Positions 18,571 through 29,197 of a stretch of 64,000 nucleotides of DNA are shown here, in pieces. Every line of letters starts with the position of its first letter. Within the stretch, counting starts at the first letter, position 1. Under the pieces are notes generated by a model that saw only the letters and a list, made by a program, of their open reading frames with translations, had not been told where the DNA came from and ran no database searches. Source of the stretch: an uncultured delta proteobacterium (GTDB taxonomy: Bacteria; Myxococcota_A; Polyangia; Polyangiales; Polyangiaceae); the NCBI GenBank assembly GCA_963841435.1, contig CAWJCS010000005.1, forward strand, positions 672,001 to 736,000, given 5' to 3'. The position numbers were made by a program, and so were the translations under genes.

Positions 18571-19147
18571 TCAGGGCCGCAGAACGCGTCTCCAGTCCTC
18601 TTCGACGCGCCGCAGCGCCAGCACGGCGCCGTAGGACCGTTGGCCGAGCCGCGCCGCGAACCGCACCTCGATCGGGGGCTCGGCGGCCCCCATCGACACC
18701 AGGCGGACGAGCACTCGGTAGTCCCCCGCGAGGAGCTCGCCGCGCTCGAGATACACGTTCTCGAGATTTCTCCCGCGACACTCGCCGTCGCGACCCGGGC
18801 AGTCGCGCTCCTTCACCAGGCCGCTGCTCGTCGGGCGCCCACTCTCGGCAAGCTCGCCGTTCGGGTCGATCACTCTTCAGATCGACGTCCGCGGTGGGCT
18901 CGTCCCAGGACACGAGAAAGTCGGCAAGCCCCGTCGGCAGCCCGCACCCTTCGTCGGCGAGCCCGTTGCCGTCGTCGTCGAGCGCGTTGCCGCAGAGCTC
19001 GGGCGCCGTGGTCACGGCCGGTCGCAAGGGCAGCTCCGTGGGCTCCACGGCGCTTTGGGGCGCCGGCGGGCGCGACGGCGCGCAACCGACGTGCGCGCCG
19101 AACAGCGCGAGCGCGAGCCAGGGCGCGCGCGCTCGCTCGCCGGTCAC
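18571..19147 (-). CDS. Lipoprotein with ELCxxxDDDxNGxxDEGC putative metal-binding motif and YfaP/DUF2135-like domain; frameshift near 18875
   Basis: AHVG-C lipobox; SWD..ADVDL continues as VIDPNG, RDC, ENVY, GDYRV in the other frame; GTGA overlap with the upstream gene. Confidence 0.7.
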
Positions 19148-21855
19148 GGGGCGTCCGGCATCTTGATCCCGGTGACGACCTTCGGGTTCATGAGCTCGAA
19201 GTAGGCCTGCCGGGCGGCTTCGCCCACGGCGCCGGGCTCGTTGCGCAGCGCGAGCAAGACCCCCTGTTCCTTCATGAACTTCAGGGTGCGCAGGGCGCCC
19301 GCACGCTTGGTTTCGTCGCTGCCCTTCGCCATCTGCCAGAGCCGATAGCGCAAAACGACGCGCGTGAACGAGTGCGGGCCGTTGTCGTAAAGCAGGTTGT
19401 CGAACTGCTTCGTCAGCATCACGCGCGCCCACTCCTGCGGCGTCTGATTGATGCTCACGTGCGACATCGCCTCGGCATTGTCCACGTACTTGAACAAGAG
19501 GCCGGCCTCGAGGTCGTCGGTGGACCAGTAGCCGAAGGTCTTGTACCAGAGCTCGCCGAGCTCATCGAGCGCGGGCTTGGCGACGCTCAGCGGCTTGGTT
19601 CCATAGAAAGCAACGGCGCGAGCCGCCGTCTCGGGCGAGCCGCCGAGGATCAAGGCCAGCGCCGCATCGTTGATCAACACGTCGCTGTTCATCATTTCGA
19701 ACAGCTTCTGCTCGATGGTCGCGTCGAAGCCGCCCTTGGCGAGGGCGCGCGCCACCTGGTGCCGCGTTTCGATGGCGGCTTCTGGCGTGAACAGCGAGAG
19801 CAGCGCCGGCGCCGTGCCGGGCACGGGACGCTGGATCAGCGACTCGAGCAGACACTCGCGTCGGAACTCGTCGGGCTTCTCGTTGCCCTTGTACTCGTCG
19901 ATCTTCTTCGCAATCTCGAGAAAATCGTCCTTCTCGGCGACCCAGGCGAGCGCGGCACACGCGGCCTTCCGGCTCTGCTCGTTCTCCTTCGTGTCCTCGA
20001 TGTACTCGAGAAGCATTTTGAAGGCCTTGTTGTCGCGCCATTCGGAGAACCCGTCGGCGGCGCCGACGCCGATGGCGCGCAGCGACATGCCGAGGATTGC
20101 GAGGCCGCCCTGATAGAGGCCGTCCATCGTGACGTCGAGCTCGTCAGGCTTGGCGTGAATGGCCTTGTCGAGGCTCTTCCACGACTGCTTGTCCTTGAGC
20201 CACCCGACGTAACGCAGGGCGCTCTGCGCGATCACCCACTCCTCGGGCATCGGAGGCTGCTGACCTTCCTTGGGGAGCGGCTGGTCGGGATCCGCCCACT
20301 TGCGGAAGGCGTCGATGTCCTTGGTGGAGCCCATGGCGGCGAGCGCGCGCAGGCCGTTGGCGTGCGGCGACGGCAGCTCGTGGATCCAGAAAATGACCGC
20401 GTCCTCCGCCTGCTCCTGGATGAGCGGGAGCTTGTCGGGATGCAGGATCGCGAGGTCGGCGATCATGCGGGCCGCCATGACGCGCTCGTCGTCGGTGCGC
20501 TTGAGCCCCATCTCCCAGTCGTTCTGGTCGGAGTAGATCTTGAGCGGATCCATGCGCAGCCGCTTGGCGAGCGTCGGCACGGCGCGAATATCGCCGATGG
20601 CCGCCAGCGCGAGCGCTGCGTGCGTCTGCAGGTGAATGTGCGGGTTCGACTCGATGTACTTGTAGAGCGCGTCGGCGCCGCTCGGATCGTTCAGGCCCTG
20701 GCCCGGCTTGAAGGCGTCGGTCGCCTCGATCACGTGGATCATGTTGAGCAGCTGCTTCTTGAAGTACCAAGCAGCCTTGCCCGGCTGACGATTGTCGTCC
20801 GGCGGATCCTCGGTCGGCGCGGCCTGCAGCGCGACGACGAGACCCTGGGTCCCGATGCCGTCGCGGATGGCCTCGAAGTACTTGGTGCGGCTTTCCTTGT
20901 CGACGCCGCGCAGGGCCGACACGAGCGGCTCGGTGGCCCGCGCGTCGCCGATGCGGCCGAGGCCCGGCGCCGCCTGGCGCGCGACCTCGGCGTCCTTGTC
21001 CTGCACGAGCTTGATGAGCGTGTCCGTGTACTTGGGCTCGGCGTGATCGGAAAGCACGGTGGCCACGAGCTGGCGCACGGCCGCGCTCTCGTCGTTGGCC
21101 ATCGTCGCGAGCTTGTCGATACCGATGAGGTTCACGATCTTGTTGGGATCGAAGGCAATGCCGCCGCCGAGGCGCTGCACCTTCGCGAGGTGCCCGAGCC
21201 GATAGAGCTTCATGACCTCATCGAGCGCTCGCGTGTCACCCAAGACGACGAGCGCCCAGGCGATCTGAGGCCTGGCGCCTGGCCCCGCCTTGGCGAACGC
21301 CGCGAGCAAGCTGTCGCGCGCGCCGTCGGCCATGGGCCGCCCGTACTCGGCGAGCGCGACCGCGGCCATGCCCTGCACGGCCTCCGACGGATAAGCGAGC
21401 GCCGCCGCGGCGGCCGGGACCCCTTGGGGATCCCTTTCCCACGCGAGCTGTTTGAGCGCCTCGCAGCGCAGCTCGTCGCTCGACTCCTTCGTCGCCCACT
21501 CTCGCCACGCTGCAAGCTGCTCGGCCTTCGGCTTGACGAAGATGTCCTTCTTGATCGCCTCGCCTTGCTCGATGGTCAGCCGCTCGGCGTCTTTCTTCAT
21601 GCCGAAGAACAAGAAGCCGGCGAGGCCGAGCACCGCGAGCACGCCCACGGCGATCACAGCGGGATTGAAACGGCCCTTCTTGAAATCGCCGTCTCCGCCG
21701 CCGTAGCCGCCGAAACCGCCTCCGGCGGGAATGCCGGGACTCGGAGCGCCCGGGATGTCGTCGTCGGGCGGCCATTTCGACAGGTCAACCTTGGGCACGA
21801 GCGCGACAATCGGCGGCTTCGGGGGAGCAGCGTGAGGGATGTTGGGTTCGAGCAT
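19144..21855 (-). CDS. Membrane-anchored HEAT-repeat protein (~900 aa)
   Basis: Single TM helix (VIAVGVLAVLGLAGFLFF) followed by repeats such as VRQLVATVL, VARQAAPGLGRIGD and AALALAAIGD. Confidence 0.85.
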   Translation of the reverse strand: MLEPNIPHAAPPKPPIVALVPKVDLSKWPPDDDIPGAPSPGIPAGGGFGGYGGGDGDFKKGRFNPAVIAVGVLAVLGLAGFLFFGMKKDAERLTIEQGEAIKKDIFVKPKAEQLAAWREWATKESSDELRCEALKQLAWERDPQGVPAAAAALAYPSEAVQGMAAVALAEYGRPMADGARDSLLAAFAKAGPGARPQIAWALVVLGDTRALDEVMKLYRLGHLAKVQRLGGGIAFDPNKIVNLIGIDKLATMANDESAAVRQLVATVLSDHAEPKYTDTLIKLVQDKDAEVARQAAPGLGRIGDARATEPLVSALRGVDKESRTKYFEAIRDGIGTQGLVVALQAAPTEDPPDDNRQPGKAAWYFKKQLLNMIHVIEATDAFKPGQGLNDPSGADALYKYIESNPHIHLQTHAALALAAIGDIRAVPTLAKRLRMDPLKIYSDQNDWEMGLKRTDDERVMAARMIADLAILHPDKLPLIQEQAEDAVIFWIHELPSPHANGLRALAAMGSTKDIDAFRKWADPDQPLPKEGQQPPMPEEWVIAQSALRYVGWLKDKQSWKSLDKAIHAKPDELDVTMDGLYQGGLAILGMSLRAIGVGAADGFSEWRDNKAFKMLLEYIEDTKENEQSRKAACAALAWVAEKDDFLEIAKKIDEYKGNEKPDEFRRECLLESLIQRPVPGTAPALLSLFTPEAAIETRHQVARALAKGGFDATIEQKLFEMMNSDVLINDAALALILGGSPETAARAVAFYGTKPLSVAKPALDELGELWYKTFGYWSTDDLEAGLLFKYVDNAEAMSHVSINQTPQEWARVMLTKQFDNLLYDNGPHSFTRVVLRYRLWQMAKGSDETKRAGALRTLKFMKEQGVLLALRNEPGAVGEAARQAYFELMNPKVVTGIKMPDAP

Positions 21856-22122
21856 GAGTCCTCGGGCGTGGCGGTCCGGTGGCGCCGCGTACGCTGGCAC
21901 ACACGCCCCGGACGGGCGCAGGGCCGGAACCTTAGCCCAGGCTGCTTTGCGTGTGGAGCCCAGGTTTCTCGCTCTCGTGAGCGCTTTTCGCGCGCGTTCT
22001 CGGCTCCGTTCGCGATGGAAGTTTCTTCCAACCTCCACGCGGTCGCTCGGCGCGGTCGTGGCGCGGTCGGCCCCACAGCCGGCGTCGCTCGGCGTATTAG
22101 GCTCGGCGGGGCTCCCGACGGC

Positions 22123-22824
22123 ATGATGGTCTCCTCGAAGGCACTCGCGCCAATCGGCGTTGCGCTGCTCACGACCGTGGTCGTGACGGTCCTTTCCTAT
22201 GCGCTGCCCCCGGCTCATCAGGCGACGGGCGTCGGCCTCGCCTTCCTCGTCGTCACCTACGTCATGGTGCTGCGCCATGACGGCGATGCCGTGGCGCGCC
22301 ACGGGCTCGCGCTCGGCGGGCTCCTCGAGCCAGACCCAATCTCGCTGAAGCGGCTCTTGCGGGATGCCGTGCGCGCCGTGCTTTGGGCGCTCGCGCTCGC
22401 GCTGCTGATTTTCCCGCCTTTCTGGCTCGGGTGGCTTTGCTTCTGGCACCCGGAAGGCGGCTTCGCTCGCGCTTCGTTCCGCACGCTCGCCGCCGACGTG
22501 CCGGGTCAGCTGCTCGTCATCGCGCTGCCGGAAGAGGCGTTTTATCGAGGTTACCTGCAGAGCGCCCTCGACGAGGCGTTTCCCGCCCGGCTTCGCGTGC
22601 TCGGGGCGCCGCTCGGCGCCTCGCTGCTCGTCACGAGCGCCCTCTTCGCGCTCGGCCACCTGGCGACCGAGGTGGATCCGAATCGGCTCGCGGTATTCTT
22701 CCCCTCCCTGGCGTTCGGTTGGCTGCGCGCCCGCACGCGCGGCGTCGGGGCGTCAATCGTCTTTCACATGGCCTGCAACCTCTTCACGGCGTTTCTCGCC
22801 GCAAGCTACGGGTTCTCTTCATGA
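22123..22824 (+). CDS. CPBP/Abi glutamic-type intramembrane protease, myxosortase-like
   Basis: LPEEAFYRGYLQ, LFALGH, RLAVFFPSLAFGWLR, FHMACN. Confidence 0.85.
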   Translation: MMVSSKALAPIGVALLTTVVVTVLSYALPPAHQATGVGLAFLVVTYVMVLRHDGDAVARHGLALGGLLEPDPISLKRLLRDAVRAVLWALALALLIFPPFWLGWLCFWHPEGGFARASFRTLAADVPGQLLVIALPEEAFYRGYLQSALDEAFPARLRVLGAPLGASLLVTSALFALGHLATEVDPNRLAVFFPSLAFGWLRARTRGVGASIVFHMACNLFTAFLAASYGFSS

Positions 22825-23666
22825 CGTACGGAGCGCTGCTCGATGATGTCGTCAACCGCGCCCTCGCCGAGGATCTCGCGGCGGGCGACCCGACCACCGA
22901 GGCGGTCGTCGCCGACACCGCGCGCGCCGTCGGTCGCGCCGTCGCCAAGTCGTCGCTCGTGGTCGCGGGTGGCGACGTGTTCGCGCGCGTCTTCTACCGC
23001 GTGGACCCGGGGGTTCGCGTGGAGCGCTGCCTGCCCGACGGCGCTCGCGCCGCGCCGGGGGACGTGCTCTGGCTCGTGGAAGGGGCAACGCGCTCGCTGC
23101 TGTCCGCCGAACGCACGGCGCTGAACTTCGCGCAGCGGCTCACCGGCGTCGCCACCCTCACGGCGGAGTACGTGAGCCGGATCCCGGAGGGCACCTCGCT
23201 CCGCATCGCGGACACCCGCAAGACGACGCCGGGCTTGCGCGGGCTCGAGCGCGAAGCGGTGCGCGCGGGCGGCGGCAAGAACCATCGCAACAATCTCGGC
23301 GCCGCCGTGCTCATCAAGGACAACCACGTCGCGGCGGCCGGCGGAGTGCGACGCGCCGTGGAGCTGGCGCGGTCGCGCGTCTCACATACGGCGAGGCTCG
23401 AGGTCGAGGTGGAAACGCTCGCCCAGCTCGACGAGGCGCTCGCCGCGGGAGCGGACTGCATCCTGCTCGACAATTTCGCAAAGGGAGACGTGGCGGCAGC
23501 GGTAACGCGCGTTGGCGGGCGCGCGCTCGTCGAAGTTTCCGGCGGCGTCACGCTCGACCGCATCGCCGACCTGGCGCGCGCGGGCGTCAACGTCGTGAGC
23601 GTCGGTGCGCTCACGCACTCCGCCCCGGCAGCCGACATCTCGCTCGAGATCGAGCCGCTCGGTTGA
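22821..23666 (+). CDS. nadC: Quinolinate phosphoribosyltransferase
   Basis: AERTALNF, DTRKTTPG, LIKDNH, EVEV, ILLDN, EVSGG, VGALTHS. Confidence 0.97.
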   Translation: MTYGALLDDVVNRALAEDLAAGDPTTEAVVADTARAVGRAVAKSSLVVAGGDVFARVFYRVDPGVRVERCLPDGARAAPGDVLWLVEGATRSLLSAERTALNFAQRLTGVATLTAEYVSRIPEGTSLRIADTRKTTPGLRGLEREAVRAGGGKNHRNNLGAAVLIKDNHVAAAGGVRRAVELARSRVSHTARLEVEVETLAQLDEALAAGADCILLDNFAKGDVAAAVTRVGGRALVEVSGGVTLDRIADLARAGVNVVSVGALTHSAPAADISLEIEPLG

Positions 23667-24457
23667 CGGCGTTCGATGCTGCTCGCTTCCGCGCGCTGCT
23701 CGCCGCGCGTCACCCGGGTCTCGGCGAGCCGCTCGAGCACGTCACGCTCACCGACTCGACCAACGACGATGCCCTGCGCGCCGCCGCGAGCGGCGCCCCG
23801 GACGGGGCGCTGTTCGTCGCCGAGGCGCAGCGAGCAGGCCGCGGACGGCGTGGCAGCACCTGGCTCTCGGAACCCGGTGAGGGGTTGCTCGCCTCGCTGT
23901 TGCTGAGACGCACGCTCACCCCGGAGACGGCCGCGCTCTTGCCCCTCGCGGCCGGCGCGGCCGTGCGCGCCGCCGTCGCGCTCGCTCTCGCCCCGAGCGC
24001 GGCCGCGCGTTCGGTCGGGGTCAAGTGGCCGAACGACGTGCTCGTCGATGGTAGGAAACTCGCTGGAATTCTCGTCGAGAGTCGGCTGCGCGGCTCGGGC
24101 GAAGCCGCAGTCGTCGTCGGCCTGGGTCTCAACGTGGGACGGCTAAGCCTTCCGGACGAGGTCGCGGCTCGTTCAACGTCACTCGGGGCGCTCGGCGCGC
24201 TCGAAATCATGAAGGAAACGTTGTTGCATGCCATCCTGACCGAGATCGCGGCGCGCCTTTCGCTGCTCGCTCGGCCGACTGGCCCCGCTGCCCTGATTGA
24301 GGAAATCCGGCAGCACGACGCGCTCGAAGGAAAGCGCGTCCGGGTCGAAGGGCGCCAAGGGATCGCGTCGGGAATCGACATCGACGGGAGCCTGTTGATA
24401 AGAGACGAGCAGGGTGACCTCCACTCACTGCGTGCGGGCCACGTCGAGCTCGTGTGA
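23663..24457 (+). CDS. birA: Biotin--protein ligase (no HTH)
   Basis: DSTN, QRAGRGRRGSTW, KWPND, KLAGILVE. Confidence 0.95.
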   Translation: MTAFDAARFRALLAARHPGLGEPLEHVTLTDSTNDDALRAAASGAPDGALFVAEAQRAGRGRRGSTWLSEPGEGLLASLLLRRTLTPETAALLPLAAGAAVRAAVALALAPSAAARSVGVKWPNDVLVDGRKLAGILVESRLRGSGEAAVVVGLGLNVGRLSLPDEVAARSTSLGALGALEIMKETLLHAILTEIAARLSLLARPTGPAALIEEIRQHDALEGKRVRVEGRQGIASGIDIDGSLLIRDEQGDLHSLRAGHVELV

Positions 24458-24673
24458 AGGCGGAGTCGGCCGGAGGAGGCCGGCCCGAGCTGGGCCGGCG
24501 CGGGTGAGGTCCCGGCGCCCCACTTGACGAGAAGACCGAGCGGAGCAAGCAGGAGCGAACGAGAAGCGCGCGAAGCGTCATGACGGACGCCCCCCGAAGG
24601 CGACGCCTACCGGCATCTTCGCGGTGCGGCTTGCAGTCGATACGAAGACGAGGCATAAAAAGGAAAGCTAAGA

Positions 24674-24705
24674 CCCACGTCTCGGGGGCGTGGTTGGAGG
24701 CCAAC
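24674..24705 (+). promoter_or_regulatory. Structured 5' leader with the Shine-Dalgarno inside a hairpin
   Basis: CCACGTCT/GGGCGTGG stem followed by GTTGG-AGG-CCAAC (24693-24705), which contains GGAGG 8 nt before ATG 24709. Confidence 0.45.
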
Positions 24706-24708
24706 AGT

Positions 24709-25435
24709 ATGGCAACCGAAGAAACGGTGAGTGCGATCGCTAAGGCCCTAGGCGAAGCGGACGAAATTCCGCTCGCTCAGATTGCTGGTGTGGTTCAGGC
24801 GCTCGGGGAAGAGCAAGCTCGTACGCTGCTCACGGAAACTCTGGAGATCGAAGGCAAGGGCGGGATGATGCTGCCCGACGGCAGCCGCAAGCGCTCGCCG
24901 GGCGGGGTGTTCTTCTTCCTCTCGCGGCAACGCTTGAGTGTGGATGACAAGCACCGCATCTTCCGGGCGCCGAAGCCGGCGAAGCCTCCGTCTTCGTCCG
25001 CCCCTGAGACGAGCCCGTTCCCGCGCCGCCGCGTGATCGAGGTCGCGCCAGCACGGCCTGCGCCCGCAAGCCGGCCGCCTCGTCCGGGCTTCTTGCCGCC
25101 CGAGCTGCCCGTGGCCGTGAAGCGCGTGAAGGTGCGGGAGGCCATCCAACAGGCGCTCACGGCTCTACCGGCGGAAGATCAATACGGTCTGTTGCTCGAT
25201 TTCCTCGCCGACCTCCACGAGCGTCTCGGCTACCGCGTGCCGGAGTCTCAGCGGACGCCGTCCGTCTTCGAATCCGCCGACGCGTCCCGGCGCCGCCATG
25301 GGCGAGCCGCCGTCGTCGCAGCGTCCGATCCCCGTACCGGAGTCGGCCCGCATCTCGACGAGCGAGCCTCCCGTGAGCCAGGCGGCGCCGAGCGAGCGCA
25401 AGCGAGCCGCGGCCAGCCGCTCGAAGCGCAGCTGA
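24709..25435 (+). CDS. PHAX RNA-binding-domain protein; probable frameshift near 25261 (as sequenced the ORF ends at 25455)
   Basis: TLEIEGKGGMMLPDGSRKRSPGGVFFFL resembles the PHAX RBD signature; good SD; the alternative frame after 25261 has GC3-rich codons and repeats VPES(Q/A)R. Confidence 0.8.
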
Positions 25436-25451
25436 CGCCGCGCTTCGAGTG

Positions 25452-26135
25452 CTAGGCCGCCCGCCGGGCGGGCGTGACCTCGACGCGTTGCTCGGAGGTT
25501 GCGCGCCGTCGTGCGCGAACCTCGTCGTGCACCACGCGAGCCGCACGACGAGGCCGCGGAGCGGGCAAGCTCCCCGGCTCGTTCGGCGCGGCGTCTCCGG
25601 GCTCGCTGAGCCGGAGCGCGAGCTGTCGGCGCCCGCGGTGCAGCCGGCTCATGATCGTTCCCACGGGAACACCGAGCTCGCGAGCCGCATCGCGATACTC
25701 GAGCCCGCCGAGGTCGACGAGCTCCACCGCGCGCCGATAGCTCTCGGGCAAGTCACGGAGCGCACGGCGCACGGCGCGCCCCACGAGCGCGGCGGGCGGC
25801 GGCCCGTCGGCGTGAACCCAAGAACAGGGGTCGAAGGTGACGCGCTCGAGGGCACGATGCTCGCGCCGTAGCCGCCGGTAGCGGGAGACGAACAGGCTCG
25901 TCTGGATCTGCCGCAACCAGGCAAATAGGTTCGACCCCGGCTCGAAGCCGTGCGCGTAGACGAGCGCGCGCAAGACCGTATCCTGAACGAGATCGAGCGC
26001 ATCGCTCTCGCACGCGCAGAGACGACGCGCTCGCGCGCGGAGGCGCGGCAGCTCCGCTTCGATCGCGAGACGAGAGCTCGCGACGCTCGTCGGAACGGCA
26101 TCGGGAACCAGTACGGTGGTCGGCGTCGGGGTCAT
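25452..26135 (-). CDS. ECF sigma-70 factor
   Basis: DALDLVQDT, NLFAWL, LPESYR..V.L, YRDAARELGVPVGTIMSRLHRGR. Confidence 0.9.
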   Translation of the reverse strand: MTPTPTTVLVPDAVPTSVASSRLAIEAELPRLRARARRLCACESDALDLVQDTVLRALVYAHGFEPGSNLFAWLRQIQTSLFVSRYRRLRREHRALERVTFDPCSWVHADGPPPAALVGRAVRRALRDLPESYRRAVELVDLGGLEYRDAARELGVPVGTIMSRLHRGRRQLALRLSEPGDAAPNEPGSLPAPRPRRAARVVHDEVRARRRATSEQRVEVTPARRAA

Positions 26136-26148
26136 GCCTCGGTGCTCT

Positions 26149-26164
26149 CGCAAACCGCGTGCCA
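26149..26164 (-). promoter_or_regulatory. Sigma54 (-24/-12) promoter
   Basis: Minus strand TGGCACGCGGTTTGCG = TGGCACG-N4-TTGC with exact GG-N10-GC spacing, intergenic, immediately upstream of the ECF gene. Confidence 0.75.
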
Positions 26165-26365
26165 CGTCCGAAGCGCACGCTCCAGCGCGGATCCGGGCCG
26201 ATCTCTGCGGCTGGCGAGCCACCGTCGCGTGTCAAACTGGCAAGCGCGCGTTTCCCGCTGACAGCACGTCCAGCGCGCGAGGGCCCGCCGCCCTCGCGGG
26301 ACGATTCTCGAGCATCGTCGAGCACTCCGCTCGCGCCGCACGGCCGACCGCGCGGCAGCAACCGA

Positions 26366-27685
26366 TCAGAGCACGACCATGCGCCCGCTCATCGTGATGA
26401 ACGCGAGCAGGCCGAACAGCCCCGGGTAGTACCGGACGGAGCCCGGCGGCAGATTGAGGTCCCAGACCGCCTGCACGAAGTCAACGCGCTCCGCCCTCGT
26501 CGCCGGCACCGCCGCGATCCCGTTCGCGAAGATCAGGGCCAGCTCGCGCGACTCGAGGATCGGCGTGCCGTCGAGCTCGTAGCTCGTCCCGTATTTCGTC
26601 AATCCCTGGGAATAAAAGAAGCTGATCAGGAGATCGCTCTCGGCCGCGGCCCAAGCGCCCTCGTCGGTCCAGATCGCGTCGAGCGTCACGTTGAGGTGAG
26701 TCCGGTACGCTTCCGGTCCGAAGTAGCCCCAGCCCTCTTTCGAAACACCATCGAAGTAGGCGCGCACGGGCGTGAGCCCCGTGCGGGCGTGGGCGACGAG
26801 CTGGATGTAGGCGCGGCCCGCGTCCGCGGCGTCGAGCCAGAAGTCGTCGCCCGTCGCCTCCGCCCAGAGCTGGTAGTAGGCGGGCATCTCGATCGACGGG
26901 CGGGTGAAGATGGCGGCCTTGGCATTGGGCACGTCGAAGACGAGCTTCGTCTCGCCGTCGAAGGTGTTCGTGACACCATCGACGATGCCGCCGTTCCGAT
27001 CTTCCTTTTGACGCATGACGTCGAGCAGCTCGAGTGCGTCTGCTTCGTAGTCGATCGCGCCGTCGCTACCCCAGCGATCGTGCGCGAAGATCAGTGACAT
27101 CGTGAATTGCTGATAGCCGAACGGATCCACGCAGGCCGTCGTCGTCAACGGATCGAGCGTGTCGCACCAGGAGTCGAAGTAGCCGGCGTTCGCTCCCGAA
27201 GCGGCCATCACGGCCTTCGCGTAGCTCCAGAGCTTGTCGAACTCCTGCTGCTTGTCGAGCTCCACCGTGATGAGCATCCCCAAACCGACGCCCTCGGTGC
27301 GCACATCGCCGTGGTAGATGTCGCGGATCTCGGCCTGATCGGGATGGTCCGGATCCTCGTAGTAGATGGCGCGCGTGTCCGGATCGCCGTGGAAGAGCTG
27401 TTTGAAGGCGCCGTCGATCTTGTCGCTGATCTCCCGCTCGCTCTTGCCGAGCAGGTCGCGAAACACATTCGGGTAACTGCTCCTCGGGCTCAATGGCCTG
27501 AGGCTCGATTCGGTCGGGCCCCCATCGGATCCGCCCTCGCCGATCGCGTCGGGCCCCGTGTCAACGCCCGCGTCGAGCTGGTCGCACCCGAGCGAGTCCA
27601 CCGTGGTGGAGCAGCCGCCGAACGCCCCGACTGCCAGCACGCAGGCGGTTCCAGCCGCACGAAGGCACGAAAGGATTCCGGTCAT
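26366..27685 (-). CDS. GH8 lipoprotein, Rex (reducing-end xylose-releasing)/xylanase-like, divergent active site
   Basis: AFGG-C lipobox; YPNVF, DVRTEGVGLGM, EFDKLWSYAK, FTRPS..PAYY, TGLTP, RYY. Confidence 0.82.
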   Translation of the reverse strand: MTGILSCLRAAGTACVLAVGAFGGCSTTVDSLGCDQLDAGVDTGPDAIGEGGSDGGPTESSLRPLSPRSSYPNVFRDLLGKSEREISDKIDGAFKQLFHGDPDTRAIYYEDPDHPDQAEIRDIYHGDVRTEGVGLGMLITVELDKQQEFDKLWSYAKAVMAASGANAGYFDSWCDTLDPLTTTACVDPFGYQQFTMSLIFAHDRWGSDGAIDYEADALELLDVMRQKEDRNGGIVDGVTNTFDGETKLVFDVPNAKAAIFTRPSIEMPAYYQLWAEATGDDFWLDAADAGRAYIQLVAHARTGLTPVRAYFDGVSKEGWGYFGPEAYRTHLNVTLDAIWTDEGAWAAAESDLLISFFYSQGLTKYGTSYELDGTPILESRELALIFANGIAAVPATRAERVDFVQAVWDLNLPPGSVRYYPGLFGLLAFITMSGRMVVL

Positions 27686-27714
27686 CGCCGCCCGGGAACC
27701 CTGATGAACGGATG

Positions 27715-28431
27715 CTACTCCGTCAAGTACGAGCGAACGCGCGACGCGAGGACGCTGTTCGGGTGGCGCTTCAGGAATGCGTCGGCGTGCTTCCCGGCCG
27801 CGGCCTTTTGCCCGCTCTTCGCGAGCGCATCGATGCGCAGTACCTCGGCCTCGAGGACGAGGCGCCCCCGCGGGTAGGTCCGCGCGTAGTCGTCGAGAAG
27901 CGATAGCGCATCGCTCGCGTCCCCCGAGCCGAGCCGTGCCCGCACCCGGTCGAGCGCTGCAAGCTCCTGAGCGAGCGAGCTTGCCGACGAGACACGCGGC
28001 TCGGCCACCTTGGACGGCGCGGCCGCCGGGGGTGCCGCCGCCTCGTCGCCGTTCGCGACCTCGGGCTCGGGGACGGCGGGCCGCGGTGTGGGCGCCGCGT
28101 GCGGTACCGGTTCCGTCGCCTGGGCAACGACGGGAGTCGCAGGTGCCGCAGCCGTCTCGCGGTGCTGCCAGACGTAGTAGCCCGCTGGCGCCGCCACCGC
28201 GGTACCGAGCCCCGACACCACGAGGAACTTCGCCCAACCCGCCTTGGCGAACAGCGCGGACGAGGCGCCGCCGGCCGTACCGGCCGTGAGCGCCGCCGAC
28301 CCCGCGACCCCGAGCGCCGCGAGCGTTCGAGCACGCACGGCGTCCGAGCTTCGATAAGAGGACCCCGCCTCGAGCAAGGCTTGCTCGAGCGCGCTGCCGC
28401 CCTCTTCGCGCAATCGACGCGGCCCGTTCAT
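27715..28431 (-). CDS. Putative anti-sigma factor (short cytoplasmic N-terminus, TM, Pro linker, TPR-like periplasmic domain)
   Basis: ATGA overlap with the ECF gene; LAQELAALDR..L, YARTYPRGRL..EA..LRIDAL, FLKRHPNS. Confidence 0.7.
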   Translation of the reverse strand: MNGPRRLREEGGSALEQALLEAGSSYRSSDAVRARTLAALGVAGSAALTAGTAGGASSALFAKAGWAKFLVVSGLGTAVAAPAGYYVWQHRETAAAPATPVVAQATEPVPHAAPTPRPAVPEPEVANGDEAAAPPAAAPSKVAEPRVSSASSLAQELAALDRVRARLGSGDASDALSLLDDYARTYPRGRLVLEAEVLRIDALAKSGQKAAAGKHADAFLKRHPNSVLASRVRSYLTE

Positions 28432-29111
28432 GGGCCCACCTTCGTCAGGCCCGCTTCGAGCGCCTGCACGAGGTCGCGAAACTGGGCGCGCGCGCGGCGG
28501 AGCCGCGAGGCCACCGTCCCGGACGGGATCGACAGCACGACGGCAATCTCGGCCATGCTGAGCTCTTCGAACTCGTAAAGGACGAAGACGGTACGCAAGT
28601 CGAGCTCCATCCCATCCAGTACCCGGTCGAGCAATCTTCGGGCACGCTTTCTGTCGGCAAGCTGCTCGGGAGTGGACGGGTCGACGAGCTCGGGAGCCTC
28701 GTCCGCCGCGACCTCGCGACGGCGTGCGGCGGTACGCCGCGCATGGGCCGCAACGTTGAGGGCTGTCTGCAAGAGGAAGCTCTTTTCCGACCCGTGTCGC
28801 ACGTCATCGAGACGGCGCGCGACCGTGATGAAGGTACGCTGCACCTCGTCGTCAACCTCGGCGGGCGGCGTACCGGCGTTGCGCAGCACGCGGGCGACGA
28901 AATCGATGTGCTCGTCAACCATGCGCCTCAGGCGTGACTCTCGCTCGCTCGCCAAATCCTTCGCGCGCAGGCTCGACCCGACGACGAGCGGACGCACGCC
29001 CGACTTCAGATCGACAAGCCCCGTGGGGGCGTGCAAGGCGAGCTCGGTCATCGATGAGTCTTCGGGAGCGCGGGTGGGCGCCGGGGGGCCGCTGGAGGGT
29101 GCGCGTTTCAT
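28428..29111 (-). CDS. ECF sigma-70 factor (start uncertain: 29132, 29111 or 29051)
   Basis: FVARVLR, VDDEVQRTF, RTVFVLYEFEELSMAEIA..L.IP.GTVASRLRRAR. Confidence 0.92.
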   Translation of the reverse strand: MKRAPSSGPPAPTRAPEDSSMTELALHAPTGLVDLKSGVRPLVVGSSLRAKDLASERESRLRRMVDEHIDFVARVLRNAGTPPAEVDDEVQRTFITVARRLDDVRHGSEKSFLLQTALNVAAHARRTAARRREVAADEAPELVDPSTPEQLADRKRARRLLDRVLDGMELDLRTVFVLYEFEELSMAEIAVVLSIPSGTVASRLRRARAQFRDLVQALEAGLTKVGP

Positions 29112-29197
29112 CAATTCCCGACCTAGTCCCAAATGATCACCTCAACTGCGGCGTCCGACAACCCGAGTCGCCAGAGAGCCTGGAAATTCCAGGGGAG

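Follow-up and report, generated by a model that had tools for sequence, protein, structure and literature searches.

A PHAX-type RNA-binding domain in a Polyangiaceae protein, an offshoot of a wider, mostly Chloroflexota, bacterial family

PHAX, the export adaptor of eukaryotic small nuclear RNAs (snRNAs), is described in the portions drawn on here of two sources (PMC12350170; 10.1101/2023.07.25.550453) as a mostly disordered protein of 394 amino acids (aa) with an ARS2-recognition motif, phospho-clusters, a tryptophan helix that binds the cap-binding complex (CBC), a nuclear export signal (NES) and, at the C-terminus, a tip that also binds CBC (residues 390-394, DLDIF), all of them outside its RNA-binding domain (RBD) and, but for the tip, upstream of it. 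The RBD is characterised there as a non-specific RNA-binding domain (10.1101/2023.07.25.550453). Here we consider a gene for a small protein carrying a domain of this kind, on the + strand of a 64-kb stretch of the genome of a soil myxobacterium of the Polyangiaceae (contig CAWJCS010000005.1, positions 672,001 to 736,000; ‘the window’ means this whole stretch). With human PHAX (2XC7) this protein has in common the domain family, a predicted fold, 36% identity over 91 columns and the element GG...GSR[RK]R[ST]PGGVF. Its RBD begins at residue 8, with only 7 residues before it, its C-terminus is unrelated to PHAX, and in a phmmer comparison the alignment to full-length PHAX (8pnt_C) is confined to residues 244-302 of the latter. 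The ARS2 motif, the Ser/Thr clusters, the W118 CBC-binding helix, the CRM1 NES and the C-terminal tip, as far as these accounts place them, have no counterpart in the bacterial protein. Since only the RBD is common to both, the bacterial protein is, on sequence comparison, not a PHAX orthologue. Bacteria are not, to our knowledge, known to have CBC, CRM1 or RanGTP, and this genome was not searched for them.

The identity of the domain is supported by profile, sequence and predicted structure. Its match to the Pfam family PF10258 (PHAX_RNA-bd) covers residues 8-87 and profile positions 3-81 of 84, with an E-value of 7.9e-19 and 67.9 bits against a curated gathering threshold of 25 bits. This agrees with the initial annotation of the locus, which was made from the sequence alone and recognised a PHAX signature of the type E.E..GG....GSRRRTPGGVF. 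Searched in all six frames, the complete genome (7.78 Mb, 6 contigs) yields one copy of PF10258, at 70.2 bits, and the same search of 14 control genomes gives 0 matches. The only second Pfam listing is a sub-threshold one (Phage_Bbp19, E 0.13), and 0 NCBIfam families match the protein. The best sequence match in the PDB is the human PHAX RBD (2xc7_A, E 9.9e-10), followed by full-length PHAX (8pnt and 9hfl) and a Cryptosporidium parvum chain (2w4s); the family profile reaches 2xc7 with E 2.7e-13. The segment GGMMLPDGSRKRSPGGVFFF aligns to the human ‘GGLFIMNGSRRRTPGGVF’, and the C. parvum chain is alignable too. The conserved element, which can be written GG-x(5,6)-SR[RK]R[ST]xGGVF, is thus present in the window protein, and the GG, D, S, R, GGV and F of the signature are invariant in 55 homologues.

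The window’s copy of the gene is interrupted by one base, as set out below, and an intact relative that is 98% identical across the shared part (P0002) was used as its proxy in structure prediction. The AlphaFold2 (AF2) model, made with the 55-homologue alignment as input, folds the domain into five helices with a predicted local confidence (pLDDT) of 87-94, as expected from the N-terminal helical domain of about 85 aa proposed at first reading. A Foldseek comparison of this model with the PDB returns 2xc7 (template-modelling (TM) score 0.63, rmsd 3.2, 91 columns) and 2w4s (TM 0.79, rmsd 2.1, about 90 columns) with probability 1.00, and nothing else reaching E<1, so that the superposition on the PHAX RBD suggested as a check is borne out by the model. 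The 2W4S structure, a ‘novel RNA-binding domain’ deposited as an ankyrin-repeat protein, is part of a larger eukaryotic protein, with a sequence identity of only 23-28%; a Haliangium relative of the window protein matches it with Z 11.8. With the domain as query, the ESM Atlas yields only PF10258 clusters, which are bacterial (Chloroflexota commonest) or, in one case, mainly eukaryotic. By these comparisons of sequence and predicted fold the domain is a genuine PHAX-type RBD.

The window protein is one of many. It has 235 homologues, and all 120 among the matches listed carry PF10258. Among 1.84 billion cluster representatives, a profile search picks out 2,278 clusters (50% identity) with E<=1e-3, of which 1,033 pass E<=1e-10; the library carries no names, and the 2,278 include a share of eukaryotic clusters. 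When one genome per prokaryotic species was scanned with a pattern as seed, 73 loci were confirmed, none of them archaeal. Among them are 22 full-length relatives in metagenome-assembled genomes (MAGs) of Polyangiaceae/Myxococcales, two of these labelled Pseudomonadota, together with a variant Polyangiaceae form (L030), one Haliangium, one Chromatiales MAG and 48 Chloroflexota loci from Anaerolineae, Chloroflexia, Ktedonobacteria, Caldilinea and Herpetosiphonaceae. Judged on sequence, the window protein is a Polyangiaceae-specific offshoot of this wider, mostly Chloroflexota, bacterial PHAX-RBD family. The two loci titled ‘Pseudomonadota bacterium’ (L017, L021) hold a Polyangiaceae-type gene with neighbours as in the Polyangiaceae MAGs, and the label probably reflects an older taxonomy.

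The company that the domain keeps elsewhere in the family is informative about its likely ligand. In a Pfam scan of 41 of the 51 loci L024-L074 (40 from other lineages plus L030), PF10258 was found in all 41 open reading frames (ORFs), with RRM_1 in addition in five (up to 4 copies) and a cold-shock domain (CSD) in one. Among 148 cluster representatives, PF10258 was found in 146, RRM_1 was added in five and 12 carried 2-4 tandem PHAX domains, with no enzymatic or other family at E<=1e-5. A search for proteins of 432-2000 aa with the domain found none among 574 candidates, which is weak evidence. Most of the proteins from L024-L074 have in common a C-terminal domain without a Pfam family. In the Haliangium protein (L035:5992-6678; a further example is Thermosporothrix hazakensis L034:5908-6687) this domain, residues ~115-218, is predicted with pLDDT 89.9 and matches oligonucleotide/oligosaccharide-binding (OB) folds of SSB, PriB, the editosome and class-IIb tRNA-synthetase anticodon-binding domains at Z 7-8.2, values that are middling and gain their weight from their consistency across dozens of OB matches. 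The domain can thus be said to keep company only with nucleic-acid binders. The Chloroflexota and Haliangium proteins have an RBD homologous to that of the window protein (hhalign probability 99.9, E 3.8e-33 over 89 columns), followed by the predicted OB fold and in some cases by a C-terminal helical module, RRMs or a CSD, and they are stand-alone genes without a conserved partner; in the window type, by contrast, AF2 predicts no beta strands after the RBD and no OB fold.

We infer that the window protein probably binds single-stranded RNA (ssRNA) non-specifically, as an RNA chaperone or adaptor, a reading that draws on sequence, model and analogy and is strengthened because relatives fuse the domain to RRM or CSD, or have a predicted OB fold after it. 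The RBD would bind ssRNA without strict sequence specificity through its GG...SR[KR]R[ST].GGVFF element, like the eukaryotic domain, the basic linker and tail may contribute electrostatic affinity, the helical hairpin and the linear motifs (RRRV.[ED]V, PP.LP) that follow the domain could serve self-association or partner recruitment, and the protein would act in post-transcriptional control. The ProQ/FinO-type RNA chaperones likewise consist of a small helical RNA-binding domain with a basic disordered linker or tail, in a different fold family, and a general RNA-binding role is the likely one here too. This is a functional analogy only: scans of the window protein against Pfam and NCBIfam give no match to Hfq, ProQ/FinO, CsrA or CspA.

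The same partner domains can be read differently, with the protein binding single-stranded DNA (ssDNA) or the nucleoid instead of RNA, as an accessory ssDNA-binding or nucleoid-associated protein. The OB folds to which the partner domain of the Chloroflexota and Haliangium relatives comes closest are those of SSB and PriB (Z 7.3-8.2), the CSD is known to bind both ssDNA and RNA, and basic disordered linkers and tails are typical of nucleoid proteins too. However, the RRM fusions (5/41 ORFs, 5/148 representatives) point to RNA, those members of the domain that have been characterised bind RNA, the OB matches include tRNA-anticodon and editosome folds, and the window protein itself has no predicted OB fold, so that binding to DNA in place of RNA seems distinctly unlikely.

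The fusions in this family take the forms of 1-4 RRMs with the PHAX RBD, with or without OB, and of CSD with PHAX RBD and OB; examples are L057:2331-4166, L061:5146-6717, L056, L059, L063, L029:5662-6762, P0195 and P0138. P0195 (797 aa) contains a tandem array of four PHAX domains. The C-terminal helical module, ‘LPxE..KLxxLYxSAxxFRQK...GLxMTxxLLxxxExxI’, occurs in 20/37 aligned Chloroflexota-type proteins (alignment columns about 700-778, e.g. L033, L046, L068, L072) and is of unknown family. Two of the OB-type relatives weakly match phrog_36163, of unknown function (E 7e-4 and 7.5e-3).

Beyond the RBD the Polyangiaceae type has an architecture of its own, whose parts had been recognised at the outset as a Pro/Ser/Arg linker, a short helical segment and a Ser/Pro-rich basic tail; all are present in the DNA, and the segment is a predicted two-helix hairpin. 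The alignment of 55 homologues has 44 invariant columns, lying in the domain, in two linker motifs, in the helical segment and in part of the tail. With a pI of 11.7 for the linker and 11.5 for the tail, both are basic. RRRV..V of the first linker motif is invariant within a segment predicted to be disordered, PP.LP of the second is invariant directly 5' of the hairpin, the tail motif PPSSQRPIP is conserved and intact relatives finish in a basic ...SRSKRS or ...RAKRS. The hairpin (residues 135-151 and 155-173) is predicted with pLDDT 85-90, and elsewhere outside the domain the AF2 model is disordered. A prediction of hairpin self-association (residues 125-192, two copies) scored 0.34 against a mark of 0.42, with controls at 0.00. 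Two proposals for this region found no support: that the hairpin equals the Chloroflexota helical module (hhalign E 0.26 over 8 columns), and that linker and hairpin are the relic of an OB fold (post-RBD regions compared by hhalign, E 0.36 over 16 columns).

These invariant short motifs and the hairpin resemble docking elements, and the domain itself is net acidic. Together with the suggestion, in the part of 10.1101/2023.07.25.550453 drawn on here, that the eukaryotic RBD region may also contribute to CBC binding, this could make the PHAX-like domain a protein-protein scaffold with no affinity for nucleic acid. Against such a role, the basic SR[KR]R loop is conserved and is in common with the RNA-bound 2xc7 structure, and across the family the domain associates exclusively with nucleic-acid-binding modules; we regard it as very unlikely. 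A still smaller chance attaches to the proposal of the initial annotation that the protein is a phosphorylation-controlled small-RNA regulator and a substrate of myxobacterial Hanks kinases. The tail is Ser/Thr/Pro-rich, with its conserved PPSSQRP, and myxobacteria are textbook holders of many Ser/Thr kinases. However, no kinase is syntenic with the gene, the kinase-like neighbours of the Chloroflexota genes differ in kind and in position and belong to abundant signalling families (histidine kinases, response regulators, one Pkinase-STAND-WD40), and the phospho-clusters of PHAX sit, as far as the cited account goes, in regions outside the RBD that have no counterpart here (PMC12350170). Kinase control of this kind thus appears extremely improbable, and a chaperone or adaptor for ssRNA remains the preferred reading.

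The reading frame of the gene needs some care. Translation is taken to start at 24709, with a Shine-Dalgarno sequence 8 nt 5' of the ATG, rather than at an alternative longer in-frame start at 24580, because more than 50 homologues begin with ‘MATEETV’. The interval first annotated, 24709 to 25435, does hold every feature ascribed to it, but its 727 nt are not divisible by three and are not one ORF, a one-base insertion having been silently crossed. Codons 1-187, the portion common to all homologues, are in frame 1. As assembled, this frame continues to a TAG at 25453-25455 through a tail of 61 residues (188-248) that has no homologues, ends ...PRFEC and overlaps the 3' end of the convergent extracytoplasmic function (ECF) sigma gene by 4 nt; all homologues span only about 76% of the ORF in this form. 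The Ser/Pro-rich basic tail is encoded in the +1 frame from about 25272 to a TGA at 25433-25435. The window reads GAATCC where relatives read GATCC or GACCC, and DNA alignments to L002, L004 and L006 all show a one-base gap opposite the window’s TTCGAATCC, from which we conclude that the window has an extra A. The unbroken P0002 protein passes from ‘...TPSVF’ to ‘DPPTRPG...SRSKRS’, which is the window’s +1 frame. Reading through the insertion gives a protein of 241 aa.

If the insertion is real, the gene in this genome might be decaying or inactive, with its conserved C-terminal 54 residues lost. The comparison with three relatives and with a 98%-identical protein leaves the extra base clear, and the family is an accessory one that is often not found in related genomes. 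However, past the insertion the GC content of third codon positions (GC3) reaches 0.87-0.90 when read in the +1 frame but only 0.70-0.80 in frame 1, and because the shifted frame has kept this GC3 and its DNA conservation, the shift is either very recent or an assembly error; our guess is that this 6-contig genome comes from a long-read assembly of a kind prone to one-base indels. The insertion leaves the RBD, the linker motifs and the hairpin in frame, and the gene is present in 3/3 other genomes of the genus. Decay is therefore an unlikely explanation, though a less remote one than binding to DNA, and not all the alternatives considered here exclude one another. In public sequencing runs, among which no RNA data set carrying the gene is listed, one soil-metagenome contig matches 24770-25011 at 100%, a stretch that stops short of the insertion.

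The distribution of the domain is patchy. PF10258 occurs in 16/151 genomes and 10/89 genera of the window’s GTDB family, and in 3/3 other genomes of its genus. In a sample of its phylum it occurs in 3/401 genomes, all three within that family (0/371 elsewhere), and in a sample of Chloroflexota in 15/401, centre genome included; these counts are samples and not proof of absence. In a maximum-likelihood tree of 74 domains over 90 columns, 24/24 Polyangiaceae-type rows fall in one group (support 96/88) whose nearest neighbours are Chloroflexota rows, with the Haliangium row outside on a long branch; a single Myxococcota clade is not rejected by the approximately unbiased (AU) test (p 0.385). The tree is unrooted and of bacterial domains, and no donor or direction of transfer is claimed from it. 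Against human PHAX the Chloroflexota-type profile scores 83 bits and the Polyangiaceae profile 53.5 bits; because the former outscores the latter, this fits a derived status for the window’s type. The PHAX+OB gene of the Chromatiales MAG (L046) nests in a tight Chloroflexota clade (support 99/97), which suggests lateral transfer or a binning error.

A number of points weigh against an ssRNA chaperone or adaptor. RNA binding by the bacterial members is argued from analogy with the eukaryotic domain, and the OB folds and CSD of the relatives can bind ssDNA too. The domain is slightly acidic (net -1, pI 5.8), and the basic tail falls outside the frame as assembled. The post-domain region has no detectable homology in Pfam, NCBIfam, hhalign, PHROGs, PADLOC or ESM Atlas searches; PHROGs and PADLOC give no match to the window protein, and the ESM Atlas gave no usable match with residues 100-246. 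The patchy distribution points to an accessory role. The arrangement of nadC-birA upstream and an ECF sigma gene downstream is found only in the 7 closest loci, and among Chloroflexota loci neighbours are common only within one tight clade, so that no functional partner is conserved beyond close relatives.

Bacterial copies of the domain had been described at first reading as sporadic and functionally uncharacterised, which holds good: such proteins are already auto-named in the databases, as ‘phosphorylated adapter RNA export RNA-binding domain-containing protein’ at NCBI and ‘PHAX RNA-binding domain’ at JGI, and are unstudied. A full-text literature search, with most subscription journals outside its scope, turned up no work on PHAX-domain proteins of bacteria and ‘PF10258’ in 0 papers. 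As far as we know, few general bacterial RNA-binding families have been recognised (Hfq, ProQ/FinO, CsrA, Csp). A sizeable unstudied family of nucleic-acid-binding modules only would be a candidate new player in how two phyla of multicellular-type bacteria with large genomes control their genes post-transcriptionally, and is a test case for a bacterial root of part of the eukaryotic snRNA export machinery. In a bolder form, the bacterial PHAX-RBD proteins would be an undescribed class of RNA chaperones or adaptors (with OB/RRM/CSD or tandem domains in Chloroflexota, linker and hairpin in some Polyangiaceae) and the source from which the eukaryotic stem lineage acquired the RNA-binding module of PHAX, rather than the product of a late eukaryote-to-bacterium transfer; we put this forward tentatively, as a doubtful proposition. 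The window’s own gene is more modest: an accessory, lineage-specific, auto-named variant, interrupted in this assembly by one base.

The small protein encoded here is cytoplasmic, and its gene has a conserved upstream region of its own (Table 1). A pair of hexamers, TTGCAG and CATAAA, separated by 17 nt, is conserved 5' of the gene in close relatives, and the TTGC[AG]G block also precedes it in a distant Polyangiaceae group with a different genomic context. A generic sigma-70 scan does not call this pair, because its first hexamer has only 3/6 matches; the pair is a putative, promoter-like element by conserved sequence and not a mapped promoter. Just 5' of the Shine-Dalgarno sequence lies a leader block, CCCACGTCTCGGGGGCGTGG, which has a G-run and can form a hairpin; GGGGGCGTGG is invariant in 8/8 sequences, and the G-run is kept in the distant group too. 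The minimum free energy of the leader has a z-score of -2.0, with 9/200 shuffles folding as well, in a single-sequence range of -2.0 to +1.2. RNAalifold finds no consensus pairs across 21 leaders, the leader motif has no second genome copy above the control count, and Rfam (E<=0.1) has no match in 22000-28000. The gene thus appears to travel with its own upstream block (24631-24708 of the window, and the upstream regions of L002-L023) of TTGC[AG]G, about 17 nt, an A/T-rich hexamer and a leader with an invariant G-run. Terminator-like matches at 24890-24911 were dismissed as meaningless, since they lie inside the codons for GGVFFF.

Table 1. Coordinates, in the window, of the features of the PHAX-like gene and its upstream region
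Feature	Position	Strand	Basis
Promoter-like pair (putative)	24631-24659	+	conserved sequence
Leader block	24674-24693	+	invariant sequence, G-run
Shine-Dalgarno GGAGG	24696-24700	+	8 nt before ATG
Codons 1-187, frame 1	24709-25269	+	common to all homologues
PHAX-type RBD, residues 8-87, predicted five-helix bundle	24730-24969	+	PF10258, 2xc7_A, AF2, Foldseek
Signature loop and helix GGMMLPDGSRKRSPGGVFFF	24859-24918	+	PDB alignment, 55-homologue alignment
Linker motif RRRVIEV	25024-25044	+	55-homologue alignment, AF2
Linker motif GFLPPELP	25087-25110	+	55-homologue alignment
Predicted two-helix hairpin	25111-25227	+	AF2; no known family detected
Frame-1 continuation as assembled, 61 residues	25270-25455	+	without homologues
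Extra A, +1 frameshift	25271-25272	+	comparison with relatives’ DNA and P0002
C-terminal tail in +1 frame, Pro/Ser-rich, PPSSQRPIP, basic end	25273-25435	+	GC3, P0002, homologue alignment

The gene lies on a 1.85-Mb contig among bacterial neighbours with conserved synteny, which, with its 235 homologues and 44 invariant columns, supports a genuine gene under selection. In the window a HEAT-repeat gene (-) and then nadC and birA (+) precede the PHAX-like gene (+), which is followed by - strand genes for an ECF sigma factor, a glycoside hydrolase family 8 (GH8)-like protein, a tetratricopeptide repeat (TPR) protein and another ECF sigma factor. birA lies 5' of the gene in 6/6 of the closest loci with upstream DNA, and a convergent ECF sigma gene lies 3' of it in 7/7. 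In the distant Polyangiaceae group the context comprises a 253-aa ORF of no family, DUF481, DUF6438, an NFACT-R protein and TPR/PEGA proteins. What looked like a recurrent neighbour ‘family’ in Chloroflexota mixes histidine kinases with response regulators and STAND/WD40 proteins.

Some of these neighbours deserve mention in their own right. About 3 kb 5' of the PHAX-like genes in the distant Polyangiaceae group, and on the strand opposite to them, lies the gene for the small RNA-binding NFACT-R protein (L021:2192-2635, -), with 7 further loci having it at the same position. The run of ECF sigma, GH8-like, TPR (a possible anti-sigma) and second ECF sigma genes at 25452-29132 (-) of the window has the same order in L002, L004 and L007. 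In five related MAGs the HEAT-repeat protein of 1171 aa, encoded in the window at 19144-22659 (-), has counterparts with 79-86% identity across more than 800 residues, which makes it far more conserved than its neighbours.

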